The notes under the pieces were generated by a model, which was not told where the DNA came from, did not search any database, and saw only the letters and a list, made by a program, of their open reading frames with translations. 6,054 bases of DNA, taken from a virus (lineage: Duplodnaviria > Heunggongvirae > Uroviricota > Caudoviricetes). Below, piece by piece: positions 2,767-6,054 of the stretch (position 1 is its first letter; the number at the start of each line of letters is the position of its first letter). The stretch covers positions 1-6,054 of IMG/VR virus record IMGVR_UViG_2724679236_000018; one strand, 5' to 3'. A program made the position numbers and the translations under genes.

Positions 2767-3390
2767 TTAAAATTCGAATTGTCTCGCCCGAAGGCTTTTC
2801 AACATTGGTCTTGCCCGTTCGAAAACGGCGCTTGTCTGGTCAAGTCGTGTCGCCTCCCTGAGCAGTACATCTCTGTTTTTTGTCACCGTGTAAAAAGTTT
2901 CAAACGCGATGTCATACAGCTTGCTCGCGTATGATGAGTTAAGTTCCTTCATTATCGGGTACAGGCGTTTGCAGGTATCCACTGCTTTTTCCATCTGTAC
3001 CAGCATGTAGCAGAGGAGGATGATTTCCTCGTCTGTGAATTGTTGTAGTGGCTGCATATTGCGATACTTCTTCTCGCATTCGATGAAGTATCGACGTATC
3101 TGGCGGCCTTTTTCGTTGCGCTCAACCATCGCCAGTTCTTTGGCTGTGTCGAGGGTGAGGTGGTAATCCTTGCGGTTGTGACCGCCTCTACCAGAGGTTT
3201 GCTTTCCCAAATTGGAAAGCAAAATATAGTCTTGATTTTCAATGAATTCGTATTCTGAAATGCGATTTGTAATCCATGCCGCAAACACCTTTTTCACGCC
3301 TAAAAAAGCATGCAGATCACGGGCATTACAGAGCAGGGTGGTTTCGTTGGCAATAGTGCCGTTGAATACGGGGATGAGTTGACTGGTCAT
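2767..3390 (-). CDS. Phage antirepressor-like protein with N-terminal AntA-type domain and uncharacterised C-terminal half
   Basis: ORF 2767..3402; I place the start at the second in-frame ATG (3388-3390, MTSQLIPVF...) because GGAGG sits 5 nt upstream of it, while the first ATG (3400-3402) has no SD. The N-terminal ~110 aa carry the motif set I associate with the AntA/AntB antirepressor domain (ARDLHAFLGV, WITNRISEYEFIENQDY, GGHNRKDYHLTLDTAKELAMVERNEKGRQIRRYFIECEKK). The C-terminal ~100 aa have no motif I recognise. Confidence 0.8.
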   Translation of the reverse strand: MTSQLIPVFNGTIANETTLLCNARDLHAFLGVKKVFAAWITNRISEYEFIENQDYILLSNLGKQTSGRGGHNRKDYHLTLDTAKELAMVERNEKGRQIRRYFIECEKKYRNMQPLQQFTDEEIILLCYMLVQMEKAVDTCKRLYPIMKELNSSYASKLYDIAFETFYTVTKNRDVLLREATRLDQTSAVFERARPMLKSLRARQFEF

Positions 3391-3418
3391 GATGACCTCC
3401 ATAGATTTTTAGTTAGCA

Positions 3419-3441
3419 ATCACCAGTTAGTGGCTGGTGAT
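3419..3441. promoter_or_regulatory. Perfect 8-bp inverted repeat ATCACCAG-N7-CTGGTGAT in the leader of the AntA-like gene; candidate operator or leader RNA hairpin
   Basis: Arms 3419-3426 and 3434-3441 are exact reverse complements. The element lies between a TTGACA hexamer (minus strand, plus-strand coordinates 3446-3451) and the RBS of the AntA-like gene (3393-3397). Confidence 0.35.
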
Positions 3442-3609
3442 CGGGTGTCAACTAGAGCATCTATGAAGCTCCGGGCATATTCCCCTTGCAGGTGTTGTAT
3501 TACGCCTCTCCACCCGACCTTTGTACGGATGTGACTATGCCAGATTGCAGGCATAAAAAAGCCGCAAAGCTATCGGGTGCGGAGACCGCATAGATTTTCT
3601 AGTGCGGTC

Positions 3610-3639
3610 AGTATGCGATAGCTCGAGCGGATTTGTCAA
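3610..3639 (-). promoter_or_regulatory. Candidate sigma70-type promoter (TTGACA-18 bp-CATACT) reading towards the AntA-like gene
   Basis: Minus-strand TTGACA (plus coordinates 3634-3639), 18-bp spacer, CATACT (3610-3615). This is hexamer matching only, with a weak -10 element. Confidence 0.2.
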
Positions 3640-3742
3640 ATCATGTGGTCTTTATCTTGCTGTAAGCCGCGCCATTCGGGCTTTTCCCCAGATTTGGGGG
3701 AAACTATCTGCGAAGTATTCACCTTTAACGGCTAGTTGCAGG

Positions 3743-4027
3743 TTAGCCACGACCTTCCTCCTTTGGCTTGTGAATTTGTATCGTCATGCCGCTTTGAGTG
3801 GTGACTACAATGACAGAACCAGGCTGAAGGCTGTTAAGATTGAATGCTTCGTAAAACGAATCCAATGCCAGTGCTTTTTTATTCTTTCGGTTCCACCAAC
3901 GCCATCCCTTGCTACAGGCTACACTGACAATCCACTGCCCACTCCTGTAAGCCATATAAAACCAGATGAGCAAAACCTGAAGGAAGGCTATCCAGTCAAT
4001 AATCGTATATTTAGCGAAGGAGTCCAT
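3743..4027 (-). CDS. Small predicted membrane protein (94 aa), translationally coupled to the upstream DUF551-like gene
   Basis: Start ATG at 4025-4027 overlaps the TAA stop of the upstream gene (TAATG on the minus strand) and is preceded by GGAGG 7 nt upstream. The longer 119-aa ORF in the track is an upstream extension with no RBS. The protein MDSFAKYTIIDWIAFLQVLLIWFYMAYRSGQW... has one clear hydrophobic helix (about residues 7-27) followed by a basic cluster NRKNKK, suggesting a cytoplasmic C-terminal domain. Confidence 0.65.
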   Translation of the reverse strand: MDSFAKYTIIDWIAFLQVLLIWFYMAYRSGQWIVSVACSKGWRWWNRKNKKALALDSFYEAFNLNSLQPGSVIVVTTQSGMTIQIHKPKEEGRG

Positions 4028-4449
4028 TACTTCACCTCCAGCGGTGGTTCCGGTAGCGGCATCCAGTGTGATGGTATCCACGACGCACCAGGAATTATCC
4101 ACCCATCATTAGCGTCAGGATGCCCAGGGATGTAAGTCGCCCATTTCATTCGCCAGTCACCTCTCCTGTCAAACTCCCTGGCAACAAGAACGGCTGTTTT
4201 GCTATCCGGCATTCGCTCACTACAGCTTATCCAACCATCCGGAATTACCGGAGAGTTGCCAGCCAGCGCGTTCAACTTGTAAGTTTGGCTTACAGGTTCT
4301 GCACTATCAGCTTCTCGCCGCTTCTGTAGCTCTGCTGCCATCGCTCTCACGACTTCAACTGGTGCCCTTGCAGCAAACTCCATGTTGGTGATCAGCTCAT
4401 TAAGATATTGCTCGCTGGGATACTGTTTCTTATTGGTAATGGTGGTCAT
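4027..4449 (-). CDS. Phage protein with C-terminal DUF551-like domain (140 aa)
   Basis: ORF with AAGGA 8 nt upstream of the ATG at 4447-4449. The C-terminal half (DGWISCSERMPDSKTAVLV...WATYIPG...ASWIPSHWMPLPEPP) resembles the conserved motif of DUF551-family prophage proteins as I remember it. The N-terminal ~70 aa are unassigned. Confidence 0.75.
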   Translation of the reverse strand: MTTITNKKQYPSEQYLNELITNMEFAARAPVEVVRAMAAELQKRREADSAEPVSQTYKLNALAGNSPVIPDGWISCSERMPDSKTAVLVAREFDRRGDWRMKWATYIPGHPDANDGWIIPGASWIPSHWMPLPEPPLEVK

Positions 4450-4453
4450 ATCA

Positions 4454-4639
4454 CTATCCTTTAGTGCGCAAGTGGTTTTTCCAGCGGTTTTGCGCCGCGC
4501 TGGGCTTGTTAAGTGAACACATCACAATATCAGCCGTATTTTTGAACAGCCCCATTCTGCGGTTACTGAGTTTTAACCATTGCTGGACGCCGCGAGCATT
4601 TCTACAGGTCAAAAGAATTTTTGCTTTACGGTTTTTCAT
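4454..4639 (-). CDS. Small basic hypothetical protein (61 aa, ORF A), start inside a duplicated boundary cassette
   Basis: ATG at 4637-4639 overlaps the TGA stop of ORF B (ATGA). Its stop at 4454-4456 is 4 nt from the start of the DUF551-like gene. The protein begins MKNRKAKILL..., sharing its first 7 residues with ORF B because of the direct repeat. No family recognised and the SD is weak, so coding status is uncertain. Confidence 0.4.
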   Translation of the reverse strand: MKNRKAKILLTCRNARGVQQWLKLSNRRMGLFKNTADIVMCSLNKPSAAQNRWKNHLRTKG

Positions 4640-4641
4640 CG
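4611..4641. repeat. Direct repeat copy 1 (23-bp exact core TTTTGCTTTACGGTTTTTCATCG at 4619-4641 plus AAAAGAA flank)
   Basis: Identical 23-mer recurs at 4792-4814, 173 bp away, each time with an AAAAGAA flank. On the minus strand it reads CGATGAAAAACCGTAAAGCAAAA and carries a start codon and the first codons of a small ORF. Confidence 0.85.
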
Positions 4642-4812
4642 CACTGCGTACCCCTTCTCTCGTCTGTTACGCGACGCGGTGGTTTTATAGTTAAATGCGA
4701 ATACCACCCTACCAAACATGCCGATCACCGCCCGTTTGTGATTGCTGATTGGTAGCTTCTCGTACCCCGTCGAACGCGATAAAAGAAGTAATTTTGCTTT
4801 ACGGTTTTTCAT
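4636..4812 (-). CDS. Small basic hypothetical protein (58 aa, ORF B), start inside a duplicated boundary cassette
   Basis: Internal ATG at 4810-4812 of the 72-aa track ORF, preceded by AGGAG about 9 nt upstream. It overlaps the last 14 nt of the Ea22-like gene and its TGA stop overlaps the ATG of ORF A. Begins [10 protein letters not shown]...; no family recognised. Confidence 0.4.
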   Translation of the reverse strand: MKNRKAKLLLLSRSTGYEKLPISNHKRAVIGMFGRVVFAFNYKTTASRNRREKGYAVR

Positions 4813-4814
4813 CG
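4781..4814. repeat. Direct repeat copy 2 (23-bp exact core at 4792-4814 plus AAAAGAA flank)
   Basis: Same 23-mer as 4619-4641. Here it spans the TAA stop of the Ea22-like gene (4799-4801) and the ATG of ORF B (4810-4812). Confidence 0.85.
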
Positions 4815-5449
4815 TTTTGCTCTCCTGCGTCTCCTTTGATGCGAATGCCAGCAAGCCAGTTTCTTATGCCGATATATTCAGCGTTCCTGAAACCGCTTTT
4901 TACATATATAAATGGCAAGCGAAGATTGTGACCATTGGCTGCCAGGTAGTTTTTACAACCCTGTTCGGTGAAACTGCAGGTAACGAATTCATCAATATCT
5001 TTCACAGCAACGCGCCGCCATTTTTCTGGTGGCTCTCGAAAGTTTTCGTGAAGTAGTTCGAGACGACGACTTTGGCGTTTATTGGCTTCATTGCCATCTT
5101 CATCAACCCAGACAATCCTGTCATAGTCATAATCAGAATCAACAACGATTTCGCGCTTTTGATACACACAAAACATAGGTTCTGACGTTATTCGATTATC
5201 CTGTGTTCGAATATTTTCACCGATGATGCCAAATGAATCTGGTGCAGATTTTGTCTGCAACTCTGCTATGCGCTTACTCCCATCCGAGATAACACCTTCG
5301 TAATATTCACGCTGCTCGTTGAGTTTTGATTCAAGTTCACCGAACTTACGGACAAGATATTCAGCGTTTGTTTCGTTAACCTTTAAATCTCGGGGGATGT
5401 ATTTACCTTTCAGAAATCCATCCATCTCAATTAGTGTCATTTGTTTCAT
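4799..5449 (-). CDS. ea22: Ea22-like early-left protein (mosaic; conserved central segment, divergent N- and C-termini)
   Basis: The central peptide [25 protein letters not shown] and the C-terminal AGIRIKG match lambda Ea22 segments as I recall them ([34 protein letters not shown]). The track ORF starts at a GTG (5465-5467) with no SD; I prefer the ATG at 5447-5449 ([12 protein letters not shown]...), which has a purine-rich GGAGTGGGAAGAA upstream. The start is uncertain between these two. Confidence 0.75.
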
Positions 5450-5606
5450 TTCTTCCCACTCCGCCACATCGCATTCAGATATTTGTTTTGATTTACTGAA
5501 GGAAAAGAATTTCTCTTAAGCAATTCCTCTCTCGATGGCATTGGCTTTACGCGTTGGCGAATAATCATTTCTGCCGGAAGAATGCCGGGATTGTATGCAA
5601 GTCCTC

Positions 5607-5897
5607 TCATGATTTACTCTCCACGAACTGGTCAATAGCCATGCTAAGTGACACACCTAAAGTATCGATATGCTGCTGAATATCCTGTAGCGTCTGAGCC
5701 TGAGATAACAGGATTTCACGGTTGCATAACTCTTTAACCAGATGCTCAAACTTGCTGTAATAACCGATACGGCTTAGTGTTTCTTTCCCTGCATTCTCGC
5801 CTTCTTTGATAATTCCTCTTTCGCTAAGAATCAGGTCGTGTTTGGTTCCGGTAATAACGTATTTTCCGAGGTCGATGTTTAGCTTCATTGTTTTCAT
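5607..5897 (-). CDS. Hypothetical phage protein (96 aa)
   Basis: Within the 146-aa track ORF the ATG at 5895-5897 ([13 protein letters not shown]...) is the only candidate start with a good SD (GAGGA 7 nt upstream). The 5' extension of the track ORF starts at a TTG without an RBS and overlaps another open frame. No family recognised. Confidence 0.55.
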
Positions 5898-5907
5898 TGT
5901 TAATTCC

Positions 5908-6054
5908 TCAGTCATTACTGATAGCGCCATAGCGTGAGCGGTAATTACGCAGGCGCGGGTCAATTTCAGGGAAGTGGGTATATGTGGCTTTGCGGAATGG
6001 TCGGATTGATGTCTGGTAAATTCGCTCGCGTTCTTCTTTCTCTGCAAGCCATAT
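5908..6054 (-). CDS. 3' end of a hypothetical gene whose start lies beyond the window (partial)
   Basis: A minus-strand frame is open from the window edge to a TGA at 5908-5910, giving ...IWLAEKEERERIYQTSIRPFRKATYTHFPEIDPRLRNYRSRYGAISND. The TGA abuts the SD of the next gene (TGAGGAATTAACAATG), a typical coupled arrangement. Not in the ORF track because it is truncated; no family recognised. Confidence 0.4.
   Translation of the reverse strand: MWLAEKEERERIYQTSIRPFRKATYTHFPEIDPRLRNYRSRYGAISND

Follow-up and report, generated by a model that had tools for sequence, protein, structure and literature searches.

A packed run of mosaic accessory genes at the int-proximal end of a lambdoid prophage of Escherichia albertii

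The exo-xis region of phage lambda comprises ea8.5, ea22, orf61, orf63 and orf60a. Transcription of the exo-xis genes is among the earliest to begin, and Ea22 favors lysogeny (PMC10834534, PMC7093339), an effect established by deletion studies of ea22 in lambda and Stx phages, Phi24B included (PMC7093339). The C-terminal domains of Ea22 variants have been described as interchangeable (PMC10834534). In P22 the corresponding stretch is the "ea" region, containing orf56, eaE, eaF, eaD, eaI, eaA, eaG and eaC, and in HK022 (AF069308) genes 38 to 34 encode a DUF2737 protein, the Ea22-like gp37, gene 36, the "EaA C-terminal half" (gene 35) and gene 34. In Stx phages this region has been reported to influence lysogeny and induction.

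The window (the whole 6,054-nt stretch analyzed here) covers the end nearest int of a lambdoid prophage that occupies the lambda att site and adjoins ybhC in Escherichia albertii. The source contig originates from an E. albertii draft genome, and the YbhC encoded by the host gene (positions 1 to 1284) exactly matches an E. albertii protein. The att core (GCTTTTTTATACTAA, 1331 to 1345) lies beside ybhC and is followed by the minus-strand, lambda-type int (1419 to 2486) and xis (2464 to 2682); from the att core through xis, the identity to lambda is 91.5%. Read along the minus strand, the order is abc2, seven small genes, Ant, xis, int and att. Only the 3' part of abc2 (anti-RecBCD; Pfam Anti-RecBCD_p2) is present (5908 to 6054, minus strand), since it is cut by the end of both window and contig; the region is 98.8% identical to HK022, and abc2 is the upstream neighbor of the packed run described below. 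The run lies on one strand between the recombination/anti-RecBCD genes and xis-int, which is the location of early-left (pL) accessory genes, and pL, N and nutL are beyond the contig end. All of the genes were assignable to known Pfam or PHROG families. We consider it very probable that the chain of genes analyzed here is the int-proximal part of the pL operon of this prophage, made up of mosaic accessory genes that are co-transcribed from pL and translationally coupled. Its counterparts are the exo-xis region in lambda and the ea region in P22 and HK022, where small, non-essential accessory genes fill the space between the recombination/anti-RecBCD genes and xis-int.

The preliminary description had reported five chained genes; they lie on the minus strand, and every frame and junction was confirmed by script: the Ea22-like gene overlaps ORF B by 14 nt (-14), ORF B overlaps ORF A by 4 nt at ATGA (-4), ORF A is separated from the DUF551 gene by a 4-nt gap (+4), and the DUF551 gene overlaps the DUF4752 gene by 1 nt at TAATG (-1). 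Each chain gene had an ATG start and zero internal stops, and an independent gene caller applied to the source contig returned the identical five calls. Upstream, the DUF2737 gene overlaps the Ea22-like gene and the DUF5405 gene overlaps the DUF2737 gene, in both cases at ATGA (-4), and abc2 ends 10 nt before the DUF5405 gene (+10). Since the packing goes on upstream of the Ea22-like gene, the run consists of at least seven genes, not five; it ends at a 352-nt gap past the DUF4752 gene. Plus-strand ORFs over the chain gave fragmentary matches to small, high-numbered PHROGs that were split between frames, and these were judged to be shadow ORFs. The five chain genes, like at least two more upstream of them, genuinely encode proteins, and these belong to phage families that are known but uncharacterized.

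The first gene of the run (5607 to 5897, minus strand) encodes a 96-aa protein matching Pfam DUF5405 (24.1 bits, cut-off of 21.6) and phrog_154 (E value of 3.5e-32); HK022 and P22 lack it at this position. Next comes a gene for a 54-aa DUF2737 protein (5446 to 5610, minus strand; 107.7 bits) of the P22 orf56/HK022 gene 38 type, which is 75% identical to P22 orf56.

The Ea22-like gene (4799 to 5449, minus strand) encodes 216 aa from the ATG at 5449, not the GTG at 5467. Its product combines an N-terminal segment and coiled coil in common with lambda Ea22 (phrog_614) with a C-terminal domain of the HK022 gp37 type (phrog_3205). It scored 23.1 bits against Ead_Ea22 (PF13935), below the gathering cut-off of 27, with only the last 27 profile positions matched; PF13935 is carried by its close homolog HK022 gp37, relative to which it lacks 28 coiled-coil residues, and by most database homologs. 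BLASTP against lambda Ea22 gave 59% identity over residues 16 to 66 (E value of 4e-13), accompanied by a 67-bp DNA match, and this bore out the earlier statement that it is the only chain member relatable to lambda. The lambda-type C-terminal domain, an NMR-solved dimeric alpha-beta domain (residues 102 to 182), was not found in it, and only an 8-residue C-terminal motif (AGIRIKG) was alike. An AlphaFold2 model from a 27-sequence alignment was poor, having a mean pLDDT of 63.6 and values under 60 in most of the C-terminal domain. The link to the lysis/lysogeny decision that the preliminary description mentioned for this family has indeed been published for Ea22 of lambda and Stx phages (PMC7093339, PMC10834534); since only about 50 residues are in common with lambda Ea22 and the C-terminal domain differs, transfer of the pro-lysogenic function to the present protein is uncertain.

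The DUF551 protein (4027 to 4449, minus strand; 140 aa) consists of an N-terminal module (residues 1 to 60, phrog_6847) and a DUF551 domain at residues 72 to 136 (PF04448; 74.7 bits, gathering score of 22) of the type found in the P22 EaA C-terminal half and HK022 gene 35, to the latter of which it is 93% identical. The last gene of the run (3743 to 4027, minus strand) encodes a 94-aa DUF4752 protein matching positions 2 to 84 of the 84-position profile (PF15944; 123.9 bits versus 27), and its exact sequence was present on at least 1000 contigs. The "membrane protein" label previously given to it is plausible, its basis being one N-terminal hydrophobic segment (residues about 9 to 27, mean Kyte-Doolittle value of 1.75). 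PDB sequence searches with the Ea22-like, DUF551 and DUF4752 proteins yielded only chance matches (clathrin, calmodulin and WD40 with 0 stretches). Searches with eight proteins of the window found no NCBIfam matches and no match to PADLOC defense models at an E value of ≤0.01.

ORF B (4636 to 4812, minus strand; 58 aa, pI 11.6) and ORF A (4454 to 4639, minus strand; 61 aa, pI 11.9) are paralogs, both having full-length matches to the 62-position phrog_1380 profile (positions 1 to 60, E value of 3.9e-22, B type; positions 1 to 61, E value of 9.9e-26, A type) and the invariant N-terminus MKNRKAK. ORF A is identical to RefSeq WP_059268800.1, "hypothetical protein [E. albertii]". Their full-length kin include 933W L0068, VT2-Sakai H0078, RCS47 gp56/gp57 and TL-2011c gp07; in this family, B is commonly followed by A and joined to it through an ATGA overlap. 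An exact-pattern scan for the ORF B/ORF A junction had no match among species-representative genomes. The B-to-A tandem was found in 41 cases (about 40 other loci), always at a spacing of -4, and the distance from the upstream gene was -4 for 72 of 83 A-type and 39 of 41 B-type genes, with +1 to the next gene in 74/83. Compared with other phrog_1380 loci, the present B2 and A2 allele pair is rare, and the start of ORF B overlaps the Ea22-like gene by 14 nt rather than 4.

The nucleotide conservation of phrog_1380 genes is uneven, being 77 to 90% in the 5' 30 nt and 86 to 100% in the 3' stretch of about 51 nt but 31 to 59% in the core. This pattern could be taken to mean that the two ORFs, instead of being genes, are a conserved non-coding linker, "boundary" DNA or RNA element that is open by chance; in agreement with that, PGAP left the homologous stretch of E. 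coli MS1657 unannotated (positions 3162 to 3513 of the related locus L008), Pfam and NCBIfam have no model for these ORFs, and premature stops occur in two loci. Against it, the frame was intact in all six of six allele types despite the divergence of the core, with indels in multiples of three, and starts and stops were exactly placed relative to the neighbors in more than 80% of cases. The pN/pS ratio within allele groups was 0.14 to 0.18 (0.14 to 0.18 for ORF A; 0.15 for the B1 group of ORF B), and variable sites at the three codon positions numbered 5/4/12, 3/2/11 and 3/2/9, a 2- to 4-fold excess at the third position. These ORFs were also called by other annotators. A non-coding origin is most improbable. 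The substitution patterns indicate that ORF A and ORF B are under purifying selection as genuine coding genes.

A Pfam scan at an E value of ≤10 with each of the 18 aligned ORF A sequences produced noise only, and a profile search of 1.84 billion representatives recovered 42 proteins, all short relatives and none linked to a known family. The structure model of ORF A (pLDDT of 66.8) has an alpha-beta-beta-beta-alpha topology, and a Foldseek search of BFVD with this model returned nothing at an E value of ≤0.001. A HicA-like toxin identity (E value of 0.4 to 0.8, TM of about 0.3 only) was rejected as unsupported, and P22 EaI, considered as the positional homolog of ORF A, proved to be unrelated. 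The highly basic pair is probably nucleic-acid binding. Because the N-terminus is invariant and the C-terminus near-invariant even at synonymous sites while the core has diverged almost to randomness, the tandem might conceivably be a cassette-like diversifying module, in which recombination handles and coupling signals would be provided by the conserved ends, and the variable core would be directed at a fast-evolving nucleic acid or protein of the host or a rival phage, e.g., as a small dsRBD-like (alpha-beta3-alpha) RNA binder or anti-defense factor; we regard this idea as unlikely.

As a baseline, overlaps or spacings of up to 4 nt were counted at the junctions annotated for the early-left operons of three phages, giving 9 of 15 in HK022, 12 of 16 in P22 and 5 of 10 in lambda (26/41 in total). 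Tight packing is the usual state of early-left operons and is no special signal, and the claim that the compaction is non-random holds against random sequence but not against this proper baseline. When prokaryotic gene pairs run in the same direction, -4 and -1 nt are their most frequent overlaps, and these support coupling (PMC6728339, PMC10666635). The distances within the run (-4, -4, -14, -4, +4 and -1) have the geometry of coupled pairs as described in the same studies (PMC6728339, PMC10666635), and the Shine-Dalgarno-like motif of each gene sits inside the preceding gene. The stop/start geometry and these motifs fit co-transcription and translational coupling; since each gene has its own Shine-Dalgarno-like motif, independent initiation is possible too. 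The proposal of one co-translated unit agrees with the shared orientation, the geometry and the motifs, but the packing extends past the five genes to which the unit had been confined.

From 3743 to 5897, the minus strand showed no sigma-70-like promoter or intrinsic-terminator-like site, in what was a crude consensus scan for promoters that a weak internal or non-sigma-70 promoter could escape. Folding of 3640 to 3745 and 3540 to 3605 gave no convincing hairpin with a U-tract as a terminator at the 3' end of the chain (z of -1.3 to -1.7). A LexA box (CTGT-N8-ACAG, at most 1 mismatch) was absent from 3403 to 3742, and LexA-box-like matches at 4534 and 4961 were both within coding sequence. We propose that the chain genes have no promoter of their own and would be silent in the repressed prophage. 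After infection or induction, one long antiterminated pL transcript would span the chain, and each downstream cistron may be translated by ribosomes terminating on, or unfolding, the preceding one, with termination-reinitiation at ATGA and TAATG. By analogy with Ea22 of lambda and Stx phages, the products may modulate host physiology or the lysis-lysogeny balance.

Past the 352-nt gap lies an antirepressor gene (AntA and P22_AR_C; 2767 to 3390, minus strand), whose 207-aa frame opens with the ATG at 3390. A promoter-like site at 3639 to 3610 precedes this gene and a terminator-like hairpin at 2761 to 2742 follows it, and from these signals the Ant module looks autonomous. The gap contains a full-length sRNA-Xcc1 element (Rfam RF02221; 3431 to 3519, minus strand; 62.3 bits versus a gathering score of 53), which is part of the downstream Ant module and not of the chain. 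As a separate observation, all Ant copies inspected (L001, L003, L007 and L044) had sRNA-Xcc1 at a distance of about 40 nt on their upstream side.

Int-proximal ends of lambdoid prophages often bear lysogen-expressed genes. Together with the hydrophobic N-terminal segment of the DUF4752 protein and the apparent autonomy of the adjoining Ant module, this would suit a reading in which some of the chain genes form a lysogenic-conversion "moron" that is active while the prophage is repressed, e.g., a membrane-anchored DUF4752 protein acting in superinfection exclusion. Such a role is distinctly unlikely, as the coding strand showed no promoter-like site in the chain or immediately before it, nor a terminator that would set apart the DUF4752 gene, which is tied to the DUF551 gene by its 1-nt overlap; a defense-family match was also lacking.

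In addition to transcription from pL, the preferred reading holds that the accessory genes are mosaic. Breakpoints were taken from high-identity matches to 90 related loci and clustered at gene junctions (4023 to 4031, 4434 to 4449, 4639 to 4641, 4793, 5610 to 5611 and 5892 to 5894) and at domain borders in the DUF551 (4250 to 4307) and Ea22-like (5262 to 5336) genes. Since no gene junction is without a breakpoint and two domain borders have one as well, the genes are modules exchanged separately and not as one unit. Each gene, and each of the two domains, is a mosaic module that can be exchanged separately, and the modules are joined at the tight junctions. At least 80% of the present gene combination was found in none of 492 phage records with a match and none of 5426 complete E. 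coli genomes, and its parts were common.

The preliminary description had regarded the genes other than the Ea22-like one as a foreign cassette. In its fullest form, this would make ORF B, ORF A, DUF551 and DUF4752 one acquired cassette and a single functional unit (a multi-subunit complex or a defense/counter-defense system) attached to the Ea22-like gene. In its favor, lambda itself has no counterpart of these four genes, genes for subunits of one complex are often joined by tight overlaps (PMC10666635), and the order Ea22-like, phrog_1380, DUF551, DUF4752 recurs, e.g., in L008, L010, L031 and L056. However, breakpoints at all of the internal junctions and within the DUF551 and Ea22-like genes, together with the co-occurrence data, largely refute it: the genes are found in many other combinations, ORF A alone, ORF A and DUF551 without DUF4752, and DUF4752 upstream of ORF B among them, and HK022 has the same Ea22-like and DUF551 modules but, where ORF B and ORF A would lie, its unrelated gene 36. 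The GC content of the chain showed no discontinuity relative to int/xis, the PADLOC matches were zero, and the DUF551, DUF4752 and phrog_1380 families are common in lambdoid, P22-like and P1-like phages. The alignment proposed as a check showed that the gene order matches HK022 genes 38 to 34 and an E. coli prophage (L008) with differing alleles; with HK022, the chain is thus largely collinear with a well-characterized phage region, an outcome that the preliminary description had named as refuting its reading. We therefore consider a single foreign cassette very unlikely and retain the reading of individually exchanged pL accessory genes.

The chain is a textbook case of the dense mosaic accessory region of lambdoid prophages, and all its genes have entries in Pfam, PHROGs or RefSeq as uncharacterized proteins. 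It provides a clean negative in that tight stop/start junctions in a phage operon are no mark of a cassette, and an example from an E. albertii prophage of recombination joints coinciding with gene and domain borders. phrog_1380, DUF551, DUF4752 and the HK022-type Ea22 C-terminal domain are legitimate "viral dark matter" targets.

HK022 has the same gene order as the window and the same position between abc2 and xis-int, with 95 to 99% identity over 4031 to 4264 (95%), 4830 to 5611 and 5894 to 6054. DUF2737, the Ea22-like gene (84% protein identity, same C-terminal domain) and the DUF551 domain are all near-identical to those of HK022 (95 to 97% at the DNA level), and the HK022 junctions are of the same style (-8, -4, +1 and -4). 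The differences from HK022 are the replacement of gene 36 by ORF B and ORF A and of gene 34 by DUF4752, the extra N-terminal module on DUF551, the DUF5405 gene inserted after abc2, the shortened Ea22-like coiled coil, and the Ant module with sRNA-Xcc1 before xis. In P22, the ea region has the same architecture, with chains of -4 overlaps and the order abc2, orf56 (DUF2737), an Ead/Ea22-type gene, a small gene, EaA (DUF551) and xis-int; its DUF551 domain is 45% identical to that of the window, compared with the 75% noted above for DUF2737. The small P22 gene between eaD and eaA encodes EaI, which is acidic and not phrog_1380 kin, and P22 lacks DUF4752. The lambda exo-xis region belongs to the same operon and has the same place relative to xis-int, the genes being non-essential early genes in both (PMC10834534). 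The N-terminal/coiled-coil segment of Ea22 is common to both (59% over about 50 residues) and the C-terminal domain is unrelated; ea8.5, orf61, orf63 and orf60a are absent from the window. Nothing in the window matched the orf60a-orf63-orf61(-orf73) block that lambda and Stx phages conserve; the window has the P22/HK022-type arm (abc2) instead, the upstream recombination module being of the abc2/erf type rather than the exo/bet type of lambda. The lambda junctions in the corresponding stretch are looser, ranging from +39 to +443.

All relevant genes of the window are encoded on the minus strand. Host ybhC occupies its left 1.3 kb, with DNA only ~93% identical to that of E. coli, and a protein look-up matched YbhC exactly to a protein recorded under the name Escherichia albertii. 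The lambda att core GCTTTTTTATACTAA is present at 1331-1345, adjoining the ybhC side, and from this core through int (1419-2486, the last gene in transcription order) to xis (2464-2682, overlapping int by 23 nt) the window exhibits 91.5% DNA identity to lambda. Nine contigs encode the exact Ea22-like protein; the longest, BBVS01000034.1 of assembly GCA_001514845.1, terminates within abc2, as does the window. From the YbhC match, the att core, the int/xis identity and this contig, the window is identified at the sequence level as the int-proximal end of a lambdoid prophage integrated in E. albertii at the lambda attachment site, and the host is assigned to this species and not to E. coli. Since the source contig ends inside abc2, the remainder of the prophage (pL, N and the immunity region) lies on another contig. 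An Rfam match to naRNA4 (CssrE, REP-derived) was found between ybhJ and ybhC in E. coli MS 85-1 (locus L001, 1362-1432, plus strand); it adjoins ybhC in E. coli, is outside the window sequence and is unrelated to the chain.

The preliminary description had reported five genes joined by overlapping or nearly abutting stops and starts. When frames and junctions were checked by script, its four junctions proved exactly right, and on the source contig an independent gene caller arrived at identical genes. The Ea22-like gene (4799-5449) overlaps ORF B (4636-4812) by 14 nt, ORF B overlaps ORF A (4454-4639) by 4 nt, ORF A is separated by 4 nt from DUF551 (4027-4449), and DUF551 overlaps DUF4752 (3743-4027) by 1 nt. 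However, the packing is not limited to these five genes: the run comprises at least seven, with DUF5405 (5607-5897) overlapping DUF2737 (5446-5610) by 4 nt and DUF2737 overlapping the Ea22-like gene by 4 nt. The 3' end of abc2 (5908-6054) lies 10 nt ahead of DUF5405. Shine-Dalgarno-like motifs sit within the 3' end of every upstream gene of the run, examples being GGAGGTGAAGTAATG ahead of DUF4752 and AAGGATAGTGATATG ahead of DUF551. The compaction is genuine, and it is probably functional. The geometries met most often in co-directional gene pairs of prokaryotes are -4 (ATGA) and -1 (TAATG/TGATG) overlaps, and these have been linked to translational coupling (PMC6728339, PMC10666635, PMC12548453). 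The packing had been called non-random, which holds against random sequence but not against the baseline of early-left operons: tight junctions (an overlap or at most 4 nt) accounted for 9/15 in the annotated operon of HK022, 12/16 in P22 and 5/10 in lambda, 26 of 41 in total. Tight packing is the default state of such operons and no mark of a special unit.

The chain genes share one orientation and are tightly joined, and on their strand neither a sigma-70-like promoter nor an intrinsic-terminator-like site was detected between 3743 and 5897. It is plausible that they form one co-expressed, probably translationally coupled unit, which retains the earlier proposal of a co-translated unit in this form. 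Transcription of the exo-xis genes is reported to be among the earliest (PMC10834534). Drawing on this study and on knowledge of the lambda and P22 early-left operons, we infer that the chain would be silent under repressor and, upon infection or induction, would be transcribed from pL within a single antiterminated transcript running on towards xis-int. At the ATGA and TAATG junctions, translation of each cistron would be coupled to that of the one before it, and the products may modulate host physiology or the lysis-lysogeny balance without being essential.

Profile searches against Pfam and PHROGs placed each gene of the run in a known phage family, and the chain is an ordinary feature of known type. 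Pfam scores were 123.9 bits for DUF4752, 74.7 for DUF551, 107.7 for DUF2737 and 24.1 for DUF5405; ORF A and ORF B were both full-length members of phrog_1380, and the Ea22-like protein combined phrog_614 (N terminus) with phrog_3205 (C-terminal domain). NCBIfam and PADLOC searches gave no match for any of eight proteins. RefSeq already holds the ORF A ("hypothetical"), DUF551 ("DUF551") and DUF4752 ("DUF4752") proteins. Searches of PDB sequences, AlphaFold2 modelling (pLDDT 63.6 and 66.8) and a fold search of BFVD gave no informative lead on biochemical function. The DUF5405 gene, between abc2 and DUF2737, is absent from HK022 and P22, and similarity breakpoints fall exactly at both its ends; the PHROGs label of its family, phrog_154 ("replication initiation protein"), seems doubtful for a 96-aa protein at that position. 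Plus-strand ORFs antisense to the chain or gap (3602-4135, 4120-4329 and 3310-3534) matched PHROGs 38841, 19126 and 23547. Matches to these small, high-numbered families were fragmentary and in different frames, and the families probably go back to shadow ORFs that were called as genes in a small number of phage genomes.

ORF A and ORF B are paralogues of 58-61 aa (pI 11.6-11.9) with MKNRKAK in common, and a 29-nt direct repeat spans their starts. The window and 88 related loci yielded 128 phrog_1380 members as 42 distinct coding sequences. Within allele groups, variable sites were concentrated at third codon positions (5/4/12, 3/2/11 and 3/2/9 by codon position) and pN/pS was 0.14-0.18; this sequence variation indicates that both ORFs are genuine genes subject to purifying selection. 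The B-then-A tandem occurred 41 times, always with the ATGA overlap, and A-type genes were at -4 from the upstream gene in 72/83 cases and at +1 from the downstream gene in 74/83. PGAP placed no annotation on the homologous stretch of an E. coli MS1657 prophage (L008, 3162-3513; NZ_CP135957.1), where the unannotated ORF B shows 98% identity and is subject to purifying selection; such small basic early genes are inconsistently annotated. With 42 representatives among 1.84 billion in a profile search, the family is tiny and confined to enterobacterial prophages. Compared between allele types at the nucleotide level, over window 4454-4812 and the family members in L006-L088, the first 30 nt were 77-90% identical and, among A-type alleles, the last ~51 nt were 86-100% identical, flanking a core of near-random identity (31-59%). 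The best explanation of this pattern is that recombination takes place inside the conserved ends. Some database proteins, P0010 and P0039, are in-frame fusions of an Ead/Ea22 N terminus to an A-type ORF, and together with the conserved ends they suggest that the gene ends act as recombination joints.

Likeness of the Ea22-like protein to lambda Ea22 was confined to residues 16-66 (59% identity), with a 67-bp DNA match between the genes. Overall it was 84% identical to HK022 gp37, the main difference being a 28-residue coiled-coil deletion at 5262-5272 (residues ~60-64); its Ead_Ea22 score in Pfam (23.1) fell under the cut-off of 27, probably because these residues are missing. The pattern fits the description of Ea22 as a protein whose N terminus and coiled coil are shared and whose C-terminal domains can be exchanged (PMC10834534). 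The suggested link of Ea22 to the lysis/lysogeny decision is documented for lambda and Stx phages (PMC7093339) and may extend by analogy to this type of C-terminal domain.

The 352-nt gap between DUF4752 and ant (2767-3390, 84 nt from xis) contains a full-length match to sRNA-Xcc1 (RF02221; 3431-3519, minus strand; 62.3 bits versus 53). On the same strand, a promoter-like site (TTGACA-18-CATACT, 3639-3610) precedes sRNA-Xcc1 and ant, and a terminator-like strong hairpin with a T-run (2761-2742) directly follows the ant stop, so that the antirepressor module looks autonomous. In the loci checked, 6/6 AntA-type antirepressor genes had a full-length sRNA-Xcc1 element ~40 nt upstream on the same strand (L001, 4936-5025; L003, 2487-2572 and 3025-3114; L007, 1070-1155 and 1605-1694; L044, 3402-3491). 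In APSE phages, published notes put the element ahead of an ORF6N gene (PMC7313666), and in Xanthomonas integron cassettes it is described upstream of symE (bioRxiv 10.1101/2025.06.18.660453). The sRNA-Xcc1 element may be a portable cis-acting 5' leader, instead of or besides a trans-acting sRNA, and with ant it looks like a separate, portable leader-plus-gene module bounding the chain. On the plus strand, a promoter-like site at the ant start (3379-3407) and a terminator-like hairpin ~180 nt away (3577-3591) could give rise to antisense RNA against the leader, in a manner that recalls P22 sar.

The suggestion that most of the chain is a foreign cassette was not upheld, given collinear order elsewhere, breakpoints at junctions, variable combinations and no GC step. 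Between the window and 90 loci, HSPs with an identity of at least 88% had ends that clustered at the gene junctions 4023-4031 (n = 18), 4434-4449 (17), 4639-4641 (10), 4793 (5), 5610-5611 (12) and 5892-5894 (12), and also at domain borders in DUF551 (4250-4307) and the Ea22-like gene (5262-5336). In related loci ORF A was present on its own or in varying company, with ORF B, DUF551 and DUF4752 each accompanying it in some cases and missing in others. Each single part of the window's gene combination is common, and at least 80% of the combination was found in none of 492 phage records with a match and none of 5426 complete E. coli genomes. The GC content of the chain (0.41-0.52) showed no step relative to int/xis. 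Judged by these comparisons, the chain is a permuted set of modules that were exchanged independently within a gene pool shared by lambdoid, P22-like and P1-like phages. The E. coli prophage L008 carries DUF5405, DUF2737, Ea22-like, ORF B (98%), an A-type ORF (43%), DUF551 and DUF4752 in this order. From abc2 to xis, HK022 carries DUF2737 (gene 38), Ea22-like (37), gene 36, DUF551 (35) and gene 34 in the order of the window, with 95-97% DNA identity over 4031-4264 and 4830-5611, although its gene 36 is unrelated to the window's genes at the corresponding position. P22 carries an analogous series, orf56 ... eaD, eaI, eaA.
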